Below are positions 7,451 through 27,295 of a stretch of DNA of 34,341 bases, piece after piece. A program made the position numbers and the translations under genes. This stretch comes from a virus (taxonomy: Duplodnaviria > Heunggongvirae > Uroviricota > Caudoviricetes). The DNA lies in the IMG/VR virus record IMGVR_UViG_2602041549_000012; one strand, written 5' to 3'. Positions within the stretch are counted from its first letter, which is position 1. The number at the start of each line of letters is the position of its first letter. Below the pieces are notes generated by a model. It ran no database searches and had not been told where the DNA came from. It worked only from the letters and a program-made list of their open reading frames with translations.

Positions 7451-8752
7451 ATGGAAAATATAAAGATTGATAAGTTTCTCACTATTCAAAAAGTTGATAT
7501 TCCTCTTAAGAAAGTGAATATATTTATTGGGCCTCAGGCACAGGGGAAAAGTGTCATTGCAAAGCTAATAAAATATTTTAAAGATTACCCTATGGATATA
7601 CTACGAGCTTCAACAGAGGGTAAAACTAAAAGAGATATATTGAAGGAGCAAAAGAATAAGTTTAGTAAAATTTTCCCTCAGCAGTATTGGGCTGATGATG
7701 AGTTTTTTATTGAGTATAGTAATAAGCACTATTGGGTGCGGATTACTAATCGAAAAGATAGCAAAGGGTCATTGAAAATAACCCTTTCTGAGAATTTAAC
7801 GAAGACGATTGCTAAACTTCGTTTGATTGTACGAAAGGATTTAGATGAAAATATTGAGAATTCACTTGCAGAAAGCGTTACGAGAAGACGTAAACGCGGA
7901 ATTGAACATGAATTGCGAGTATGTCTTTCTCTAGGATTGTTTTCAGAACCAGAAACAAAGCTTGAAAGTGTTTTTTATATCCCCGCAGGGCGCTCTTTTT
8001 TTGCTAACTTGCAAAAAAATGTGTTTTCATTTTTATCCAGTAGTATAGAAATTGACTACTTTTTGACAGAGTTTGGTTCTCTGTATGAACAAACAAAAAA
8101 ATTATTTAGCCAAGATTACATGATTAGGATGCTTAGGGGGGCTGTGCCTCAACATGTTAATAAGCTTGTGGAGGAGTTGATTTGCGGAAAATATATAACA
8201 GAAAAGGGTGAGGATTTTATTCGTCATGCTGCTAAAAAGACGAATCTTAACAACTCGAGCTCAGGGCAGCAAGAAGCGTTACCAATGGCTTTAATGTTAT
8301 CCTCATGGCCGTATTTACAGTCTATGACTAGTAAGAGTTTTATTATTGAGGAGCCGGAGGCTCATCTGTTTCCTTCTGCCCAAGCAAAAGTTGTATCTTT
8401 AATAGCCTCAGCGTATAACCAAGCAGAAAGCTATTGTAGCTATACAATAACAACACATAGCCCATATATTCTAAGTGCCTTCAATAATTTGATTCAAGCA
8501 GGTAATGCATTGAAGTGTATTAAGGGCAAGAATAATGCCGATATCGAACGCTTATATAAGCTTGTTCCAGAGTCTCAAATTATTGATTTTGATGATGTGA
8601 CAGCTTATATGGTTAATGCTGGGAAAGTGACGGAAATACTGGATTCCGAACTAAATATATTAGATGCGAATGAAATAGATAGGATTTCCTCTATTTTTTC
8701 AGAGACTTTTGATGCATTGATTGATATCGAATATTCGGCTACTGTGAATTAG
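7451..8752 (+). CDS. Cargo gene 1: ABC-type (AAA_21/AAA_15-like) ATPase, 433 aa
   Basis: Walker A GPQAQGKS near the N-terminus, signature-like SSGQQ, Walker B FIIEEPEAHL, H-loop TTHSP. Strongly AT-rich compared with the phage backbone. Confidence 0.8.
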   Translation: MENIKIDKFLTIQKVDIPLKKVNIFIGPQAQGKSVIAKLIKYFKDYPMDILRASTEGKTKRDILKEQKNKFSKIFPQQYWADDEFFIEYSNKHYWVRITNRKDSKGSLKITLSENLTKTIAKLRLIVRKDLDENIENSLAESVTRRRKRGIEHELRVCLSLGLFSEPETKLESVFYIPAGRSFFANLQKNVFSFLSSSIEIDYFLTEFGSLYEQTKKLFSQDYMIRMLRGAVPQHVNKLVEELICGKYITEKGEDFIRHAAKKTNLNNSSSGQQEALPMALMLSSWPYLQSMTSKSFIIEEPEAHLFPSAQAKVVSLIASAYNQAESYCSYTITTHSPYILSAFNNLIQAGNALKCIKGKNNADIERLYKLVPESQIIDFDDVTAYMVNAGKVTEILDSELNILDANEIDRISSIFSETFDALIDIEYSATVN

Positions 8753-8760
8753 GTGATTGA

Positions 8761-9198
8761 ATGTGTAAAAATTGCAAAGGAAAAACAAAAAATAAAATCA
8801 TTGTGCTATCTGATAAAGGAACGTCAACGCAATTGTCAGTCATAAATGATAATGAGTTGGAGGTTGAGCATAAGTTAATAGATGGTTGCGCTATTGTTGT
8901 TGGGGAGCGGTGTGATCATTATTTGAAGATTTATAACAATCAGGATGTTTCACATCTTTTTGTTGAACTTAAAGGAAGTGATGTTGAAAAAGCTGTTAAA
9001 CAGATAGTGACAACTTTAAAGTCAGGTGTGATTAATGTAGGTGCTAAAGAAAAAAAACATGGTGCTATTGTTAGCACTAGGAATCCGCTAAACTCAACAG
9101 AAACCAATAAGTTAAAGAAGAAAATTCTTTTGAGTGACGGAGTGAATTTGCATTTCTATAAAATGAAGGCGCAGCAAAAAATAACTTCTTTTACATGA
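8761..9198 (+). CDS. Cargo gene 2: small partner protein (145 aa), possible PD-(D/E)xK-like nuclease
   Basis: Starts 9 nt after the gene 1 stop, with an AGGTGA RBS. Has an N-terminal CxxC and a D...hhhhELK arrangement (GERCDHYL...HLFVELKG). Lys-rich and AT-rich. Confidence 0.65.
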   Translation: MCKNCKGKTKNKIIVLSDKGTSTQLSVINDNELEVEHKLIDGCAIVVGERCDHYLKIYNNQDVSHLFVELKGSDVEKAVKQIVTTLKSGVINVGAKEKKHGAIVSTRNPLNSTETNKLKKKILLSDGVNLHFYKMKAQQKITSFT

Positions 9199-18538: not shown

Positions 18539-19324
18539 TTATGAGTGATTTTTATTTGATGCTTTGTATTCTAAAACCTTCTTATTGGCGTAAAAGAATT
18601 TTGTATATGACAGGAATATAACCAGACCTGAAGTGAAATAGACGAGGGATAGTATTAATAATGCTTTTTTGTGACTGTTATTATCTTTAATCTCCTGGCT
18701 TAACCATTCGGAGTCCTCCTCGTTTAGCTGTAAGAGCTTATTGCAGGCGATCTCAGGAAGTGTGTCTTTTATAAATACGTTTTGCAGTCTCTTGCAATCG
18801 GCAAGGGTATAAGTTTTATTAAATTCAACTGCTTTATTTTTGAAGGATAAAAGAACTTTGTCACTATAAACATAGTACATCATGTTTTTATATGGTATGC
18901 CTATGGCATCCCTTACTATAACGGATTGTTCGTTGTGTATGTAACATGCGAGGAGAATGTAAAAAATACAGGCCAGAATTACAATTATTGTTTTAATTAT
19001 GTGTGGTGGTTTTGTTATGTCACCCCAGATGCGAGTAAGGAAAAAATACGATGTTTTTAGTTTTCCATCAATCAGTCCCTGCTGTATCATTCTCACATTT
19101 TCAATGCCTGATACATTGATTCCGTTAATTATTTTAAATAGTTGAATGTCGCGCCACTCGCGGTCAAGTCTTTTTAATTTTTTGTCTGAATATCCAAAAT
19201 TGAAATAATGTGCAATAAGCCTCATAAGGTTACTTTTACCAAAGCTAAAAAATGCTAATACTGCAAAGCTACAAAGGAAAAAAACGATTAGCCCCCACAC
19301 ATTAGTCACATTATAGCTGACCAT
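18539..19324 (-). CDS. AT-rich cargo membrane protein (261 aa, about 3 TM helices) at the S/V junction
   Basis: Opposite strand to the late genes. AAGGAG RBS. Hydrophobic helices at the N-terminus, middle and C-terminus. Strongly AT-rich. Occupies the position of P2 orf30. Confidence 0.7.
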   Translation of the reverse strand: MVSYNVTNVWGLIVFFLCSFAVLAFFSFGKSNLMRLIAHYFNFGYSDKKLKRLDREWRDIQLFKIINGINVSGIENVRMIQQGLIDGKLKTSYFFLTRIWGDITKPPHIIKTIIVILACIFYILLACYIHNEQSVIVRDAIGIPYKNMMYYVYSDKVLLSFKNKAVEFNKTYTLADCKRLQNVFIKDTLPEIACNKLLQLNEEDSEWLSQEIKDNNSHKKALLILSLVYFTSGLVIFLSYTKFFYANKKVLEYKASNKNHS

Positions 19325-21833: not shown

Positions 21834-24176
21834 ATGAGCACAAAATTCAGAACCGTTATCACCACTGCCGGTGCAGCAAAGCTGGCAGCGGCAACCGCAC
21901 CGGGAGGGCGGAAGGTCAACATTACCACGATGGCCGTCGGGGATGGCGGTGGTAAATTGCCTGTCCCGGATGCCGGACAGACCGGGCTTATCCACGAAGT
22001 CTGGCGACATGCGCTGAACAAAATCAGCCAGGACAAACGAAACAGTAATTATATTATCGCAGAGCTGGTTATTCCGCCGGAGGTGGGCGGTTTCTGGATG
22101 CGTGAGCTTGGCCTGTACGATGATGCGGGAACGTTAATTGCTGTGGCGAACATGGCCGAAAGTTATAAGCCAGCTCTTGCCGAAGGCTCAGGGCGTTCGC
22201 AGACCTGCCGTATGGTCATCATCGTCAGCAGTGTGACCTCAGTGGCGCTGACCATTGACACCACAACGGTGATGGCGACGCAGGATTACGTTGATGACAA
22301 AATTGCAGAACATGAACAGTCACGACGTCACCCGGACGCCTCGCTGACCGCAAAAGGTTTTACTCAGTTAAGCAGTGCGACCAACAGCACGTCTGAAACA
22401 CTGGCTGCAACGCCAAAGGCGGTAAAGGCCGCATATGACCTTGCTAACGGGAAATATACCGCACAGGACGCCACCACAGCACGAAAAGGCCTTGTCCAGC
22501 TCAGTAGTGCCACCAACAGCACGTCTGAAACGCTCGCCGCAACACCAAAAGCGGTAAAAGCAGCATATGACCTTGCTAACGGGAAATATACCGCACAGGA
22601 CGCCACCACAGCACGAAAAGGCCTTGTCCAGCTCAGTAGTGCCACCAACAGCACGTCTGAAACGCTCGCCGCAACACCAAAAGCGGTAAAAGCAGCATAT
22701 GACCTTGCTAACGGGAAATATACCGCACAGGACGCCACCACAGCGCGAAAAGGCCTTGTTCAGCTCAGTAGCGCCACCAACAGCGATTCTGAAACGCTTG
22801 CGGCAACGCCAAAGGCGGTTAAGACAGCGTATGACCTTGCTAACGGGAAATACACTGCACAGGATGCCACCACAGCGCGAAAAGGTCTTGTCCAGCTCAG
22901 TAGCGCCACCAACAGTGATTCTGAAACGCTGGCTGCAACACCAAAAGCGGTGAAGTCTGCCTATGACAATGCTGAAAAACGTCTTCAGAAAGATCAGAAC
23001 GGTGCGGATATTCCGGGAAAGGATACCTTCACGAAAAATATCGGTGCCTGTCGTGCTTATAGCGGCGCTTTGAGCACTGAAGCCGGAAACTGGACAACCG
23101 CTCAGTTTATTGACTGGCTAGAGTCTCAGGGAGCCTTTAATCATCCTTACTGGATGTGCAAGTGTTCCTGGTCATATGGTAATAACAAAATTATTACCGA
23201 TACTGACTGTGGGACTATTCATCTTGCAGGTTGCGTGATTGAGGTTATGGGCGTTAAAGCAGCAATGACCATTCGTGTGACCACTCCGAGTACATCAAGC
23301 GGTGGTGGTACCACCAGTGCGCAATTCACGTATATCAATCACGGAGCTGATTATGCGCCGGGCTGGCGACGCGACTACAATACGAAAAATAAGCAACCGG
23401 CTTTTGCATTAGGGAAAACAGGAAATACGGTTGCAAATAATAAAGCGGTAGGATGGAACTGGGACAGTGGTGCTTATTGTGCACAGGATGGCGGCGCATC
23501 AAAAATGGTGTTGCATTTTTACACGGGTGAGGGAAGTTGTCCGGCAATGCAGTTTCTTGTGGATTATAAAAACAGGGGGATTTTTTACAGGTCGGCACGT
23601 GATGGGTATGGATTTGAGGCTGACTGGTCAGAGTTTTATACCACATCACGAAAGCCAACACCTGCGGATATTCTTGCTCTGGCATTATCAGGCGGAAGCA
23701 TGTCAGGCAGCATAAAATTTATCAATGATGCCTTCCTGATTTGGGAAAGAAACACTGACTGGGCGAAAATTGGATTTAAAAATGATTCAGATGCTGATTC
23801 TGACTCATACATGTGGTTTGAAACTGGTGATAATGGCAATGAATATTTTAAATGGCGCATCAGGTCTGGCAGCACAACAAAAGATCTGATGACGCTTAAG
23901 TCTGATGCACTACGGGTTACCGGGCAGGTGATACCATCAAATTTCAGCAATTTTGACTCCCGCTATGTCCGGGATATCCGACTTGGTGGTGCCGCCACAT
24001 ACAAACCTGCGAACAATGGCATGACATGGACACATCAGGCACCGTCCGGGTGTGTATATACCGGCATTATTGTTCAGGATACCGGCTCAAACTCTGCCGA
24101 TAACATTGGTGGCGTATATTACAGACCGGTTCAGAAATACATTAACGGGACATGGTACAACGTGGCGCAGGTATAA
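21834..24176 (+). CDS. H: Tail fiber protein H (780 aa) with internal tandem repeats and an AT-rich distal domain
   Basis: Conserved N-terminus (MSTKFRTVITTAGAAKLAAA...). Phage-fibre repeat motif SATNSTSETLAATPKAVK. Longer than P2 H as I recall it. Confidence 0.85.
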   Translation: MSTKFRTVITTAGAAKLAAATAPGGRKVNITTMAVGDGGGKLPVPDAGQTGLIHEVWRHALNKISQDKRNSNYIIAELVIPPEVGGFWMRELGLYDDAGTLIAVANMAESYKPALAEGSGRSQTCRMVIIVSSVTSVALTIDTTTVMATQDYVDDKIAEHEQSRRHPDASLTAKGFTQLSSATNSTSETLAATPKAVKAAYDLANGKYTAQDATTARKGLVQLSSATNSTSETLAATPKAVKAAYDLANGKYTAQDATTARKGLVQLSSATNSTSETLAATPKAVKAAYDLANGKYTAQDATTARKGLVQLSSATNSDSETLAATPKAVKTAYDLANGKYTAQDATTARKGLVQLSSATNSDSETLAATPKAVKSAYDNAEKRLQKDQNGADIPGKDTFTKNIGACRAYSGALSTEAGNWTTAQFIDWLESQGAFNHPYWMCKCSWSYGNNKIITDTDCGTIHLAGCVIEVMGVKAAMTIRVTTPSTSSGGGTTSAQFTYINHGADYAPGWRRDYNTKNKQPAFALGKTGNTVANNKAVGWNWDSGAYCAQDGGASKMVLHFYTGEGSCPAMQFLVDYKNRGIFYRSARDGYGFEADWSEFYTTSRKPTPADILALALSGGSMSGSIKFINDAFLIWERNTDWAKIGFKNDSDADSDSYMWFETGDNGNEYFKWRIRSGSTTKDLMTLKSDALRVTGQVIPSNFSNFDSRYVRDIRLGGAATYKPANNGMTWTHQAPSGCVYTGIIVQDTGSNSADNIGGVYYRPVQKYINGTWYNVAQV
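22353..22967 (+). repeat. Tandem 132-bp (44-aa) repeats inside H, about 4.7 copies
   Basis: Units start at 22353, 22485, 22617, 22749 and 22881 (partial). Units 2 and 3 appear identical at the DNA level. Confidence 0.85.
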
Positions 24177-24179
24177 TTT

Positions 24180-24707
24180 ATGCAGCATTTGATAAATATA
24201 ACGGCAGGTAATCCAAAAACGGTTGAACAATATCAATTGACAAAGAACTTTGATGTCGTCTGGTTTTTTACAGAAGATGGTAAGAACTGGTACGAAGAAC
24301 AAAAGTATTTTGCTGATGACACGATAAAAATAGCGTACGACAAAGATAATATCATCCGCTATGTGGAAAAGGATGTGACAGCTATCAGACCGGATGGATT
24401 AAGTGTGGTTGAAGTGGCGGATATTACTGCTAACCGACGGGCGGACATTTCAGGGAACTGGATGTTTAAGGACGGCAAAGTGATTAAACGCATTTATACG
24501 GCAGAGGAATTGCAGCAGCAGGCAGAAAATCGGAAAGCCAGACTTCTTGCAGATGCTGAATCCGTAATTTTGCCGCTGGAACGCGCTGTCAGGCTGAATA
24601 TGGCGACGGATGAAGAGCGCACACGACTGGAAGCATGGGAACGCTACAGCGTTCTGGTCAGTCGTGTGGATCCTGCAAATCCTGAATGGCCGGAAATGCC
24701 GCAATAA
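24180..24707 (+). CDS. G: Tail fiber assembly chaperone G (175 aa)
   Basis: Immediately follows H. Length and position. Confidence 0.75.
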
Positions 24708-24840
24708 GTTGTATGAGCTCTGGTGGGAGCCTACATATCTATGGCACAGAGTAAAGCCTAATCTGACAGTCCGCTCTGTGCCAAAAGCGGACTAACATAT
24801 AATTTCACATTCAATCAAGAGTCATGATGATAGCATTGGA

Positions 24841-25701
24841 TCATTGTTTTGTATTCTTTAATAACTCTAAGTCGATAACAAGTATACGTGTTGGAATCGG
24901 GGCTTTATTTGGGTACAAACGTTCTCTTTTCAAATTAAAAGCCTCGCCGCTTTTAAATAACCTAGAAATGTCATGACCTTTAAATACATAATCTAAGTTT
25001 GCATCGTTTTCGTGAATTTGATGCAACTCTATTTTTTCATTCTCGGGCACTATGACGTTTGAGTATGATAGAGAAATCACATCTGGCGGTTGTTGTGGTG
25101 TTGTATTTCTATAAATATATTTACTTCTGGTTCCTATACACTCCAGAAGACAACAAAGCGGGTATGTCGTTCTAACCTTGTGTATTGAATTGAAATTCTT
25201 CCCTCTTTTTTTATGTATTGCACTAACTACCACTTCAAGATTAGCAACAGTAATTCCCATTTTTTTTCTTGATATTGGTCTCTTACAATTCCAATACTCA
25301 TCAAGTTCAGCTTGTTTTGGGTAATTGTAAAAAGCATAGAGTGGTACTGCGTTTGTATCTTTAGCGTACTGCTGTAATATATTATGTTGTAAAATTTTAT
25401 TTTTCCCTACCTCATGCTTTAGCTTTTTATATGAATACTGGTTATGATCCATTTTTTTTGCTTGTATTGCATATCGTACCCAACCAGTTTTCCTGCTCCC
25501 AATCCACCATTCCCAATCTGTTCCTTTTGTTGACTCTTTATCTTTGGTGGTTTTCTTTATAGTCACATAACTATAATCTCGCCTAGCAATCTCTAATAAA
25601 ATTAAATCACTAATTGTTTCTTCACCTATAGATAATCCTAATTTTTTTCCATCATGAAGCAAATCCCAGACATACTCAGAAATATCAGAAAAAACACTCA
25701 T
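24841..25701 (-). CDS. AT-rich cargo protein (286 aa) at the G/FI junction, function unknown
   Basis: Minus strand between G and FI, the position of P2 Z/fun. The track start at 25704 is TTG, with an ATG at 25701. Strongly AT-rich. Possible PD-(D/E)xK-like N-terminal motifs (TDWEWWIG ... YAIQAKK). Confidence 0.65.
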   Translation of the reverse strand: MSVFSDISEYVWDLLHDGKKLGLSIGEETISDLILLEIARRDYSYVTIKKTTKDKESTKGTDWEWWIGSRKTGWVRYAIQAKKMDHNQYSYKKLKHEVGKNKILQHNILQQYAKDTNAVPLYAFYNYPKQAELDEYWNCKRPISRKKMGITVANLEVVVSAIHKKRGKNFNSIHKVRTTYPLCCLLECIGTRSKYIYRNTTPQQPPDVISLSYSNVIVPENEKIELHQIHENDANLDYVFKGHDISRLFKSGEAFNLKRERLYPNKAPIPTRILVIDLELLKNTKQ

Positions 25702-25981
25702 CAACTCAACCTATATAAATGATATATAATTCATGTCTAAATATCGTCTTTGCCACTCAAAACTTTAGGGTGATGAAAAAATATAATGAAGTTCAAAAGG
25801 AACTAAGCGTACGATATCCATAATTATACTCTTTCAGACTTTCTGGATAACCCATCTTGGGAAGAGATTCCGCAAAACGCAAACCAACGTCCGCTCCTCG
25901 CTCAAAACAGGCTGTCAGATTTGATAGCGTTTCGGCTATGTAAATAGTCAGTCGGAAAATAAGTGAGTACAAATCAGGACA

Positions 25982-26008
25982 GGCGGGCGAATTGCCCGCC
26001 TTTTCTTT
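25982..26008 (+). terminator. Rho-independent terminator upstream of FI
   Basis: GGCGGGC-gaatt-GCCCGCC followed by TTTTCTTT. Confidence 0.45.
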
Positions 26009-26104
26009 ATCTGTTGTTTCATCCACTGACCAGCCAGGTCAAATAGCGTCTCATGCACTGCCCAACAGAAAATAGTTGCACCAATTAACCACGGAGTTAA
26101 ACGG

Positions 26105-27295
26105 ATGAGTGACTATCATCACGGCGTGCAGGTGCTGGAGATTAACGACGGCACCCGCGTCATTTCCACCGTATCCACGGCCATTGTCGGCATGGTCTGC
26201 ACGGCCAGCGATGCGGATGCGGAAACCTTCCCCCTCAATAAACCTGTGCTGATTACCAATGTGCAGAGCGCAATTGCAAAGGCCGGTAAAAAAGGCACGC
26301 TGGCGGCATCGTTGCAGGCCATCGCCGACCAGTCAAAACCGGTCACCGTTGTCGTGCGCGTGGAAGACGGCACCGGCGATGACGAAGAAACGAAACTCGC
26401 GCAGACCGTTTCCAATATCATCGGCACCACCGACGAAAACGGTCAGTACACCGGACTGAAAGCCCTGCTGGCGGCGGAGTCGGTAACCGGTGTTAAACCG
26501 CGTATTCTCGGTGTGCCGGGACTGGATACCAAAGAGGTGGCTGTTGCACTGGCATCCGTCTGTCAGAAGCTGCGCGCTTTCGGATATATCAGCGCATGGG
26601 GCTGTAAGACTATTTCCGAGGTGAAAGCCTACCGCCAGAATTTCAGCCAGCGTGAGCTGATGGTCATCTGGCCGGATTTCCTCGCATGGGATACGGTCAG
26701 CAGCACCACCGCCACCGCGTATGCCACCGCCCGTGCGTTGGGTCTGCGCGCTAAAATCGACCAGGAGCAGGGCTGGCATAAAACGCTGTCCAATGTCGGG
26801 GTAAACGGTGTTACCGGCATCAGCGCCTCTGTATTCTGGGATTTGCAGGAGTCCGGCACCGATGCTGACCTGTTGAACGAGTCAGGTGTCACAACGCTGA
26901 TTCGCCGTGACGGTTTCCGCTTCTGGGGTAACCGTACCTGCTCTGATGACCCACTGTTCCTCTTTGAAAACTACACCCGCACCGCGCAGGTGCTGGCCGA
27001 CACGATGGCTGAGGCGCACATGTGGGCGGTGGATAAGCCCATCACCGCAACGCTGATTCGCGACATCGTTGACGGCATCAATGCCAAATTCCGTGAGCTG
27101 AAAACAAACGGCTATATCGTGGATGCGACCTGCTGGTTCAGCGAAGAATCCAACGATGCGGAAACCCTCAAGGCCGGAAAACTGTATATCGACTATGACT
27201 ATACCCCGGTGCCTCCTCTCGAAAACCTGACCCTGCGCCAGCGTATTACTGATAAATATCTGGCAAATCTGGTCACCTCGGTTAACAGCAATTAA
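26105..27295 (+). CDS. FI: Tail sheath protein FI (396 aa)
   Basis: Synteny and length. Confidence 0.9.
   Translation: MSDYHHGVQVLEINDGTRVISTVSTAIVGMVCTASDADAETFPLNKPVLITNVQSAIAKAGKKGTLAASLQAIADQSKPVTVVVRVEDGTGDDEETKLAQTVSNIIGTTDENGQYTGLKALLAAESVTGVKPRILGVPGLDTKEVAVALASVCQKLRAFGYISAWGCKTISEVKAYRQNFSQRELMVIWPDFLAWDTVSSTTATAYATARALGLRAKIDQEQGWHKTLSNVGVNGVTGISASVFWDLQESGTDADLLNESGVTTLIRRDGFRFWGNRTCSDDPLFLFENYTRTAQVLADTMAEAHMWAVDKPITATLIRDIVDGINAKFRELKTNGYIVDATCWFSEESNDAETLKAGKLYIDYDYTPVPPLENLTLRQRITDKYLANLVTSVNSN

Follow-up and report, generated by a model that had tools for sequence, protein, structure and literature searches.

A DUF6615-family gene at the Z/fun position of a P2-like prophage: a predicted stand-alone PD-(D/E)xK endonuclease and candidate exclusion gene

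P2-like phages carry variable cargo between the tail-fibre assembly gene G and the tail sheath gene FI, at a position known as the Z/fun hotspot. In phage P2 itself, this position is occupied by fun(Z), whose product has a tested T5-exclusion phenotype (according to the P2 annotation, it blocks T5 and confers sensitivity to fluorodeoxyuridine, FUdR). The hotspot, its inverted repeats and its habit of carrying lone nucleases are already known, and our analysis leaves the understanding of the hotspot unchanged. Here we analysed the P2-like prophage of the IMG/VR virus record IMGVR_UViG_2602041549_000012 (34,341 nucleotides (nt); 'the window' below means this whole stretch of DNA), with a focus on an AT-rich minus-strand gene of the DUF6615 family located between G and FI (positions 24,708 to 26,104). 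What is new is the assignment of a fold and an active site to its product, the recognition of a broad, partner-less family on mobile elements, and a link to a P4-like satellite.

Like fun(Z), the DUF6615 gene lies in the G/FI slot on the minus strand, is of the non-essential, AT-rich lysogenic-conversion type, and has the same flanks and inverted-repeat arms. That P2 carries a tested exclusion gene at the same position supports an exclusion role for the gene found here. The proteins themselves differ. The DUF6615 protein comprises 286 amino acids (aa) versus 528 aa in Fun(Z), and the comparison with Fun(Z) that a sequence-only reading of this DNA had called for led us to reject orthology (best BLASTP match to NP_046777 with an E-value of 0.94 over 10 residues). 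We propose that the gene encodes a metal-dependent PD-(D/E)xK endonuclease that acts alone and serves the lysogen as an exclusion or defence gene. The assignment as a stand-alone endonuclease is the more secure part and, in our judgement, probable; the complete reading, including service to the lysogen, is about an even call.

The Pfam family DUF6615 (PF20320), a label that carries no function, matched aa 9-178 of the protein with 60.6 bits (gathering threshold 23.8; E 2.2e-16). The match is limited to this range because the C-terminal third is too variable. PF20320 was carried by all 79 close and distant database relatives. The exact protein occurs on 111 contigs, and E. coli and Citrobacter have near-identical ones; the names given are only DUF6615 or hypothetical (RefSeq uses 'DUF6615 family protein' for the identical protein). 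From 34 homologues, an AlphaFold2 model was built that reached a predicted template modelling score (pTM) of 0.82. Within aa 1-190, every block of ten residues had a predicted local distance difference test score (pLDDT) of at least 80, except for aa 51-60 (61). This part forms the predicted PD-(D/E)xK core and shows the alpha-beta-beta-beta-alpha-beta order of that superfamily. It is followed by a hypervariable, low-confidence middle (aa 191-255, with aa 191-226 disordered in the model) and a conserved C-terminal strand and helix (aa 256-286). Mean identity was 46% in the core, 10% in the middle and 26% in the tail.

Conservation was analysed in 109 homologues with 27-40% identity to the query. 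Invariant residues were E27, E56, G60, D62, Q80, Y91, Q105 and N126, while E64, R76, K82, C139, H174 and C184 were conserved in at least 90% of the sequences; C188 reached the same level (at least 90%) in the set of 34 sequences. E27 is located at the start of a helix, the second strand begins with D62, and Q80-A-K82 belongs to the third; this is the canonical layout of a first-helix acid, a second-strand aspartate and a third-strand (D/E/Q)xK. The sequence-only reading had noticed a D...hhhQAK pattern and taken it as a weak hint of a PD-(D/E)xK-like fold; the pattern corresponds to D62 and Q80-A-K82, and both the model and the conservation bear the hint out. We propose E27, D62, E64 and Q80-x-K82 as the active site. 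Its third motif has a glutamine instead of an aspartate or glutamate, and E64 may supply the second carboxylate. In TnsA of Tn7, a glutamine replaces the acidic residue of the third motif as well (Q130-x-K132). The cysteine and histidine cluster (C139, H174, C184, C188) probably binds a structural zinc. Such a pattern across divergent homologues points to an active enzyme under purifying selection.

The order of the core fold and the D...(E/Q)xK signature with its upstream glutamate are shared with archaeal Hjc, RecU and type II and type IV restriction endonucleases. However, identity to these enzymes is 7-18%, and the DUF6615 protein has about 100 extra residues, the conserved cysteine and histidine cluster and the hypervariable insert. 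The relationship is remote. Membership in the Hjc or RecU families was rejected, as the similarity is at the level of the fold and no Pfam or Protein Data Bank (PDB) sequence match to them was found. A sequence-profile search of the PDB returned nothing significant (a chance match to giardin, E 0.29), and neither did Foldseek against the BFVD viral structures. As one PD-(D/E)xK protein that comes without a methylase and sits in defence hotspots, the protein would resemble Shedu (SduA) and the Mrr-type type IV enzymes, an analogy of mechanism only. In contrast to these, it matches no PADLOC model, although the PADLOC set includes them, and no Mrr_cat model (Mrr_cat was not among the Pfam matches at E <= 1).

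The gene and the segment that carries it are positioned as follows:

24841-25701, minus strand: coding sequence of the DUF6615-family protein, 286 aa; ATG at 25701, stop codon at 24841-24843
24793-25888: AT-rich variable (cargo) segment of the Z/fun hotspot, comprising the gene with about 185 nt upstream and about 48 nt downstream; flank identity with P2 and P2-EC67 ends at its borders

The corresponding entry in the program-made list of open reading frames (ORFs), 24841-25704 on the minus strand, encodes 287 aa from a TTG; the ATG lies one codon downstream and yields 286 aa. The whole window represents a complete P2-like (Peduovirus-type) prophage with a gene order as in annotated P2 and in a sister prophage of E. 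coli VTB96775v. Upstream of the cargo, gene G (24180-24707) encodes a Caudo_TAP tail-fibre assembly protein (E 8e-35); downstream, gene FI (26105-27295, ATG at 26105) encodes the tail sheath protein (E 9e-34). The sequence-only reading had described a 286-aa minus-strand ORF of very low GC content between these two genes as Z/fun-position cargo of a P2-like phage, and this description holds. GC content is 0.333 (33.3%) for the ORF and 0.332 for the variable segment, compared to 0.509 (50.9%) for the window, 0.449 for G and 0.563 for FI. No other 861-nt stretch anywhere in the window has a GC content as low as that of the ORF.

Alignment to P2 and P2-EC67 revealed sharp borders: conservation on the left side ends at 24792 and on the right side resumes at about 25885-25889. 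Sampled E. coli records gave corresponding results with a query of the joined flanks. Matches to the right flank begin no more than about 10 nt from 25889; on the left, matches extending as far as the border stop within about 10 nt of 24792. Among 60 sampled rows, no empty site was found. Both flanks lay near enough to join in only 3 of the 2,139 matching E. coli records, and the one examined carries an HNH cargo. With positions 24708-26104 as query, 980 of 5,426 complete E. coli genomes matched. In 979 of them, about 21% of the query was covered, that is, the two flanks only, and a single genome (NZ_CP178634.1) contained the same cargo at 99.9% identity, annotated as 'DUF6615 family protein'. 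The cargo was absent at the DNA and protein level from 50,697 phage records. Variable DNA of foreign composition thus separates the conserved end of G from the conserved stretch that precedes FI: segment 24793-25888 is a foreign, horizontally acquired single-gene 'moron' at the Z/fun position.

Other Z/fun cargos that we examined comprised an Mrr_cat protein, an HNH endonuclease and two proteins without a Pfam or PADLOC match, all four on the plus strand. The Mrr_cat domain (4.3e-5) belongs to ORF1 of P2-EC67 (locus L002, 210-1121) and the HNH endonuclease to E. coli PapRG-06-5 (locus L057, 914-1423). That is, lone nucleases recur as cargo at this position.

To place the gene in its family, we compared homologues across genomes. 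A full search with a hidden Markov model (HMM) gave 2,747 clusters at E <= 1e-3; all of the best 150 were 158-362 aa long and lacked domain fusions. The 35 loci that were fetched belong to Proteobacteria, Bacteroidota, Cyanobacteria, Chloroflexota, Planctomycetota and Gemmatimonadota. No conserved partner was detected, as no protein family occurred in more than 3 of the 105 nearest neighbours from 31 loci; therefore the DUF6615 protein appears to work alone. Several Pseudanabaena genomes (L031, L032, L034, L037, L038 and L039) have the DUF6615 gene followed on the same strand by conserved ORFs of 198 aa and 350 aa (the contig of L031 ends before the 350-aa ORF), which may represent lineage synteny or a local partner.

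Many copies are carried by mobile elements. The copy with 86% identity is found in a P4-like satellite (Psu, Ogr/Delta, AlpA, alpha primase), between the iteron-bearing end of the primase gene and a gene for an OLD-like ATPase-TOPRIM protein. A 66%-identity copy lies between AbiTii/CcdA (a CcdA fragment) and an AAA plus WYL module, and in a siphophage-type prophage a 59%-identity copy lies behind the tail-tip gene, adjoining a DEAD/ResIII helicase gene. Copies with 57% and 39% identity are part of integrative and conjugative elements (ICEs), beside ArdC and an integrase. In Pseudomonas, the homologue adjoins a 992-aa AAA_21/SMC protein. Furthermore, DUF6615 homologues were found on 23 plasmids, with plasmid copies common in Actinobacteria and Firmicutes. 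Neighbours of some homologues include type I restriction enzymes, Lamassu, DpdE and PDC candidates. Association of the family with defence genes is suggestive, and location together with these contexts makes a defence or exclusion role plausible.

If the gene has such a role, it would be expressed in the lysogen from its own promoter, and the protein would serve as a nuclease for superinfection exclusion or against phages, cutting nucleic acid that enters the cell and leaving the host unharmed. As neither a methylase nor an immunity partner accompanies it, this would require a restricted substrate or latency. The enzyme might depend on some trait of foreign DNA (a modification, free ends or branched intermediates of replication), or it might stay latent until infection. 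The hypervariable aa 191-255 would be the likeliest seat of specificity, or of escape from phage inhibitors. Upstream of the gene, one promoter can be proposed:

25823-25850, minus strand: candidate promoter, a weak prediction read from the sequence; perfect -10 element TATAAT (25828-25823), weak -35 element TTATCC (25850-25845), spacer of 16 nt

Its -10 element is partly kept (TGTAAT) in the Phytobacter copy; the Citrobacter copy lacks it.

It is well established that P2-like prophages and P4-like satellites serve as reservoirs of anti-phage genes. Most of the untested genes cloned from P4 hotspots proved protective, namely 6 of 8 P4 loci of unknown function in a 2026 study in Nucleic Acids Research. 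With about 2,700 clusters, a hypervariable insert and no partner, this conserved PD-(D/E)xK enzyme makes an inexpensive, well-defined candidate for a new family of single-gene defence, and how a lone nuclease spares its host would be informative if shown.

Several observations weigh against a defence nuclease. Foldseek against the PDB gave nothing significant (best E 0.13), and the nearest structural match was Rep15, a non-catalytic Rab effector. No paper that mentions the family, and no experiment on any member, emerged from literature searches for DUF6615 and PF20320. PADLOC (PADLOC-DB v2.0.0, 0 families at E <= 1), PHROGs and NCBIfam gave no match; this is weak evidence, because P2 Fun(Z) also lacks a match in PADLOC, as it does in Pfam. 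PADLOC matches made up about 11% of the immediate neighbours of homologues, and likewise about 11% of the genes 6-7 positions away. Some homologues, as in Burkholderia, lie among housekeeping genes. The family is nearly absent from phages: it occurs in none of the 50,697 phage records, and in IMG/VR a distant homologue was present in only 2 of 2.9 million contigs. The Z/fun hotspot has been described as mixed-purpose, with receptor-binding swaps and invertases besides defence-like genes. Finally, a consensus scan found no minus-strand promoter at its threshold.

We also weighed other explanations of the same gene. A non-specific nuclease of the abortive-infection or addiction type would stay silent or inactive until the cell is infected or loses the element, and would then degrade host and phage DNA alike, with death of the cell as the result. 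A lone nuclease without methylase or immunity partner, its carriage on ICEs, plasmids, satellites and prophages, an AT-rich gene without a strong promoter, and the CcdA fragment and AbiTii beside one homologue would all suit such a toxin. However, no small antitoxin-like ORF is conserved alongside, and several copies stand alone among housekeeping genes, which is hard to square with an unrestrained toxin. We consider this unlikely, and it is really a sub-case of the defence reading and not an alternative to it. The best enzymatic fold matches, the resolvases Hjc and RecU, suggest another possibility, namely a structure-specific nuclease (a resolvase of Holliday junctions or branches, or a factor in recombination or maintenance) that helps its carrier to replicate, integrate or transfer. 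The ICE copies between ArdC and integrase and the frequent plasmid copies in Actinobacteria and Firmicutes fit this picture. Yet the gene is found in accessory hotspots, outside the replication and integration modules of P2 and P4, and almost all P2-like prophages do without it. In addition, the match to Hjc mostly reflects the minimal shared core (identity at most 13%), and resolvases usually have no hypervariable segment. A helper function of this kind thus seems distinctly improbable.

The similarity to Rep15 (the human Rab15 effector, PDB 8a4a) raises the question of a degenerate nuclease scaffold that binds proteins without catalysis, for example as a decoy or inhibitor of host or phage proteins, including in anti-defence. 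Rep15, a protein of eukaryotes that binds Rab, has not been reported to act as a nuclease and shares 14% identity with the DUF6615 protein; membership in Rab15_effector (PF15208) was rejected (13.9 against a gathering threshold of 27). We regard a non-catalytic module as highly improbable, since the full signature of acidic residues and lysine is invariant or nearly so across very divergent homologues, which is the pattern of an active enzyme. Decay offers a last explanation: the gene could be an inert, silent hitch-hiker without current function in this prophage. Its rarity at the locus (one in 980 flank-positive complete E. coli genomes) and the missing clear promoter are in line with this. 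In contrast, both the ORF and its catalytic motifs are intact, the identical protein recurs on 111 contigs with near-identical relatives in E. coli and Citrobacter, and P2 and P4 defence loci reportedly contain few pseudogenes. An inert passenger is accordingly very unlikely in our view.

Besides the gene itself, we analysed how the cassette compares with that of the P4-like satellite. The elements concerned are:

24767-25903: segment homologous to the DUF6615 cassette of a P4-like satellite (Phytobacter and metagenomes), a single BLAST piece that reaches from inside the left arm to inside the right arm
24760-24792, plus strand: left arm of the imperfect inverted repeat bordering the cargo (AATCTGACAG...GCGGAC); conserved P2 backbone, also in P2-EC67
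25889-25921, plus strand: right arm of the inverted repeat (GTCCGC...CTGTCAGATT); conserved backbone
24742-24783, plus strand: conserved hairpin just 3' of the G stop codon, with a stem of 10-11 base pairs and a loop of 22 nt

The two arms were recovered by a repeat search as a pair of 33 nt with 76% complementarity. They correspond to the left and right inverted repeats of the P2 'Z-region' in the depositors' annotation of AJ512685, where the repeat search recovered them too. The hairpin next to the left arm was tried as a terminator and rejected. It forms in RNA folds of both strands, there is no T-run on either strand, and the stability of the 146-nt region is unremarkable (z -0.35 and -0.43).

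When the Phytobacter satellite region was compared to E. coli by blastn, one piece of 1,149 nt matched the sister prophage with 84.6% identity, and the remaining matches were P4-type crr iterons in 1,343 genomes. Alignments of the satellite copies show homology that spans the gene, the region upstream of it and the inner portions of the two arms and fades at their outer ends. The Citrobacter copy (68% identity) shares only the ORF and about 80 nt upstream. A scan for the Phytobacter-type arm found it in no IMG/VR contig. Since the satellite copy carries pieces of the P2-like backbone, the comparison suggests that a unit reaching from arm to arm passed between a P2-like phage and a P4-like satellite; the arms would be either active recombination sites or mere break points. 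In the satellite (L005), the DUF6615 cassette lies between direct repeats of 28 nt (7636-7663 and 8951-8978, 89% identity) with TGTTCAC iterons inside them; these iterons belong to the crr-type region that directly follows the primase gene.

A recent survey reported the exchange of defence genes between P2-like and P4-like elements as very rare. A cassette shared between the two bears on this reported near-absence. If transfer occurred, the copy in the crr-proximal hotspot of the satellite would be a rare documented exchange between helper phage and satellite, and would hint that the palindromic arms are recombination sites. This belongs to a broader reading in which the Z/fun inverted-repeat unit would be a transferable cassette. 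In a second broader reading, DUF6615, a large multi-phylum family (about 2,700 clusters), would consist of single-protein anti-phage nucleases and maybe be a bacterial relative of vertebrate Rep15, which has been reported to be without homologues. We regard these readings as doubtful.

Downstream of the cargo, two further elements precede FI:

25981-26010, plus strand: intrinsic terminator of the backbone, a GC-rich stem with a T-run, directly upstream of the pF late promoter region
26012-26081, plus strand: predicted pF late promoter region, by homology to P2 only

The stem of the terminator (25981-26001) comprises 9 pairs, 7 of them G-C, and is followed by TTTCTTTATC; the T-run ends about 95 nt before the ATG of FI. 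Thus, the clean plus-strand terminator that the sequence-only reading had placed about 100 base pairs before FI was recovered. Its fold has a predicted energy of -23.9 kcal/mol (z = -3.8), and none of 200 shuffled sequences was as stable. The terminator scan found no other qualifying plus-strand hairpin in 24000-26600 (a second listed site is a sub-stem of the same hairpin), and an Rfam scan of 24500-26300 gave sub-threshold chance matches only. Hairpin and T-run are kept in P2 and P2-EC67 and end 2-5 nt before the stretch that aligns with the activator-binding site of P2 pF. Because the terminator is conserved in both phages and abuts this site, its sequence context identifies it as a backbone element that insulates pF and not as a property of the cargo. 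No exact TGT-N12-ACA activator motif was found near pF; the site was therefore placed by alignment to P2, with 26012-26037 corresponding to the P2 activator-binding site (P2 17555-17583) and about 26079-26081 to the transcription start of the P2 F operon.

Late transcripts of the V operon, according to the sequence-only reading, would run antisense through the cargo gene before they stop. For this phage the idea is plausible on sequence grounds, because there is no plus-strand intrinsic terminator between G and 25981, and the backbone terminator is likely the end point of these transcripts. As a general rule it does not stand. The terminator is not linked to the cargo, and the annotated V-operon terminator of P2 lies within P2's own cargo, adjoining the 3' end of fun(Z); the DUF6615 cargo brings no such element, and several other cargos are encoded on the plus strand. 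In the late phase, V-operon transcripts unstopped before 25981 would cross the DUF6615 gene in antisense and could damp its expression. On the plus strand of 25400-25700, antisense to the gene, C strongly exceeds G (GC skew -0.38 to -0.47). Such a composition would suit Rho loading on read-through late transcripts, so Rho-dependent termination of the untranslated RNA within the antisense stretch is possible.

The complete order of the prophage is int, C, cox, A, a first cargo hotspot, Q, P, the head and lysis genes, V-W-J-I-H-G, the DUF6615 cargo and FI-FII-E-T-U-D-ogr. Two other regions resemble the Z/fun segment in their low GC content. The A-Q hotspot (7451-9198, plus strand; GC about 0.35) contains a two-gene candidate system, consisting of a 433-aa ABC-type ATPase (Pfam AAA_15 8e-21; PADLOC PDC-M29A 2e-31 and AriA 1.7e-25) and a 145-aa partner (PDC-M29B 2.8e-4). 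The third low-GC island (about 0.35; 18539-19324, minus strand) lies between S and V, where P2 has orf30, and its minus-strand ORF of 260/261 aa has no match in Pfam or PADLOC. Within the tail-fibre gene H, we found 4.4 tandem copies of a 132-nt (44-aa) unit with 92% identity (22374-22951, plus strand). The H protein is 780 aa long here and 736 aa in the otherwise near-identical prophage of NZ_CP178634.1, which has one repeat fewer.

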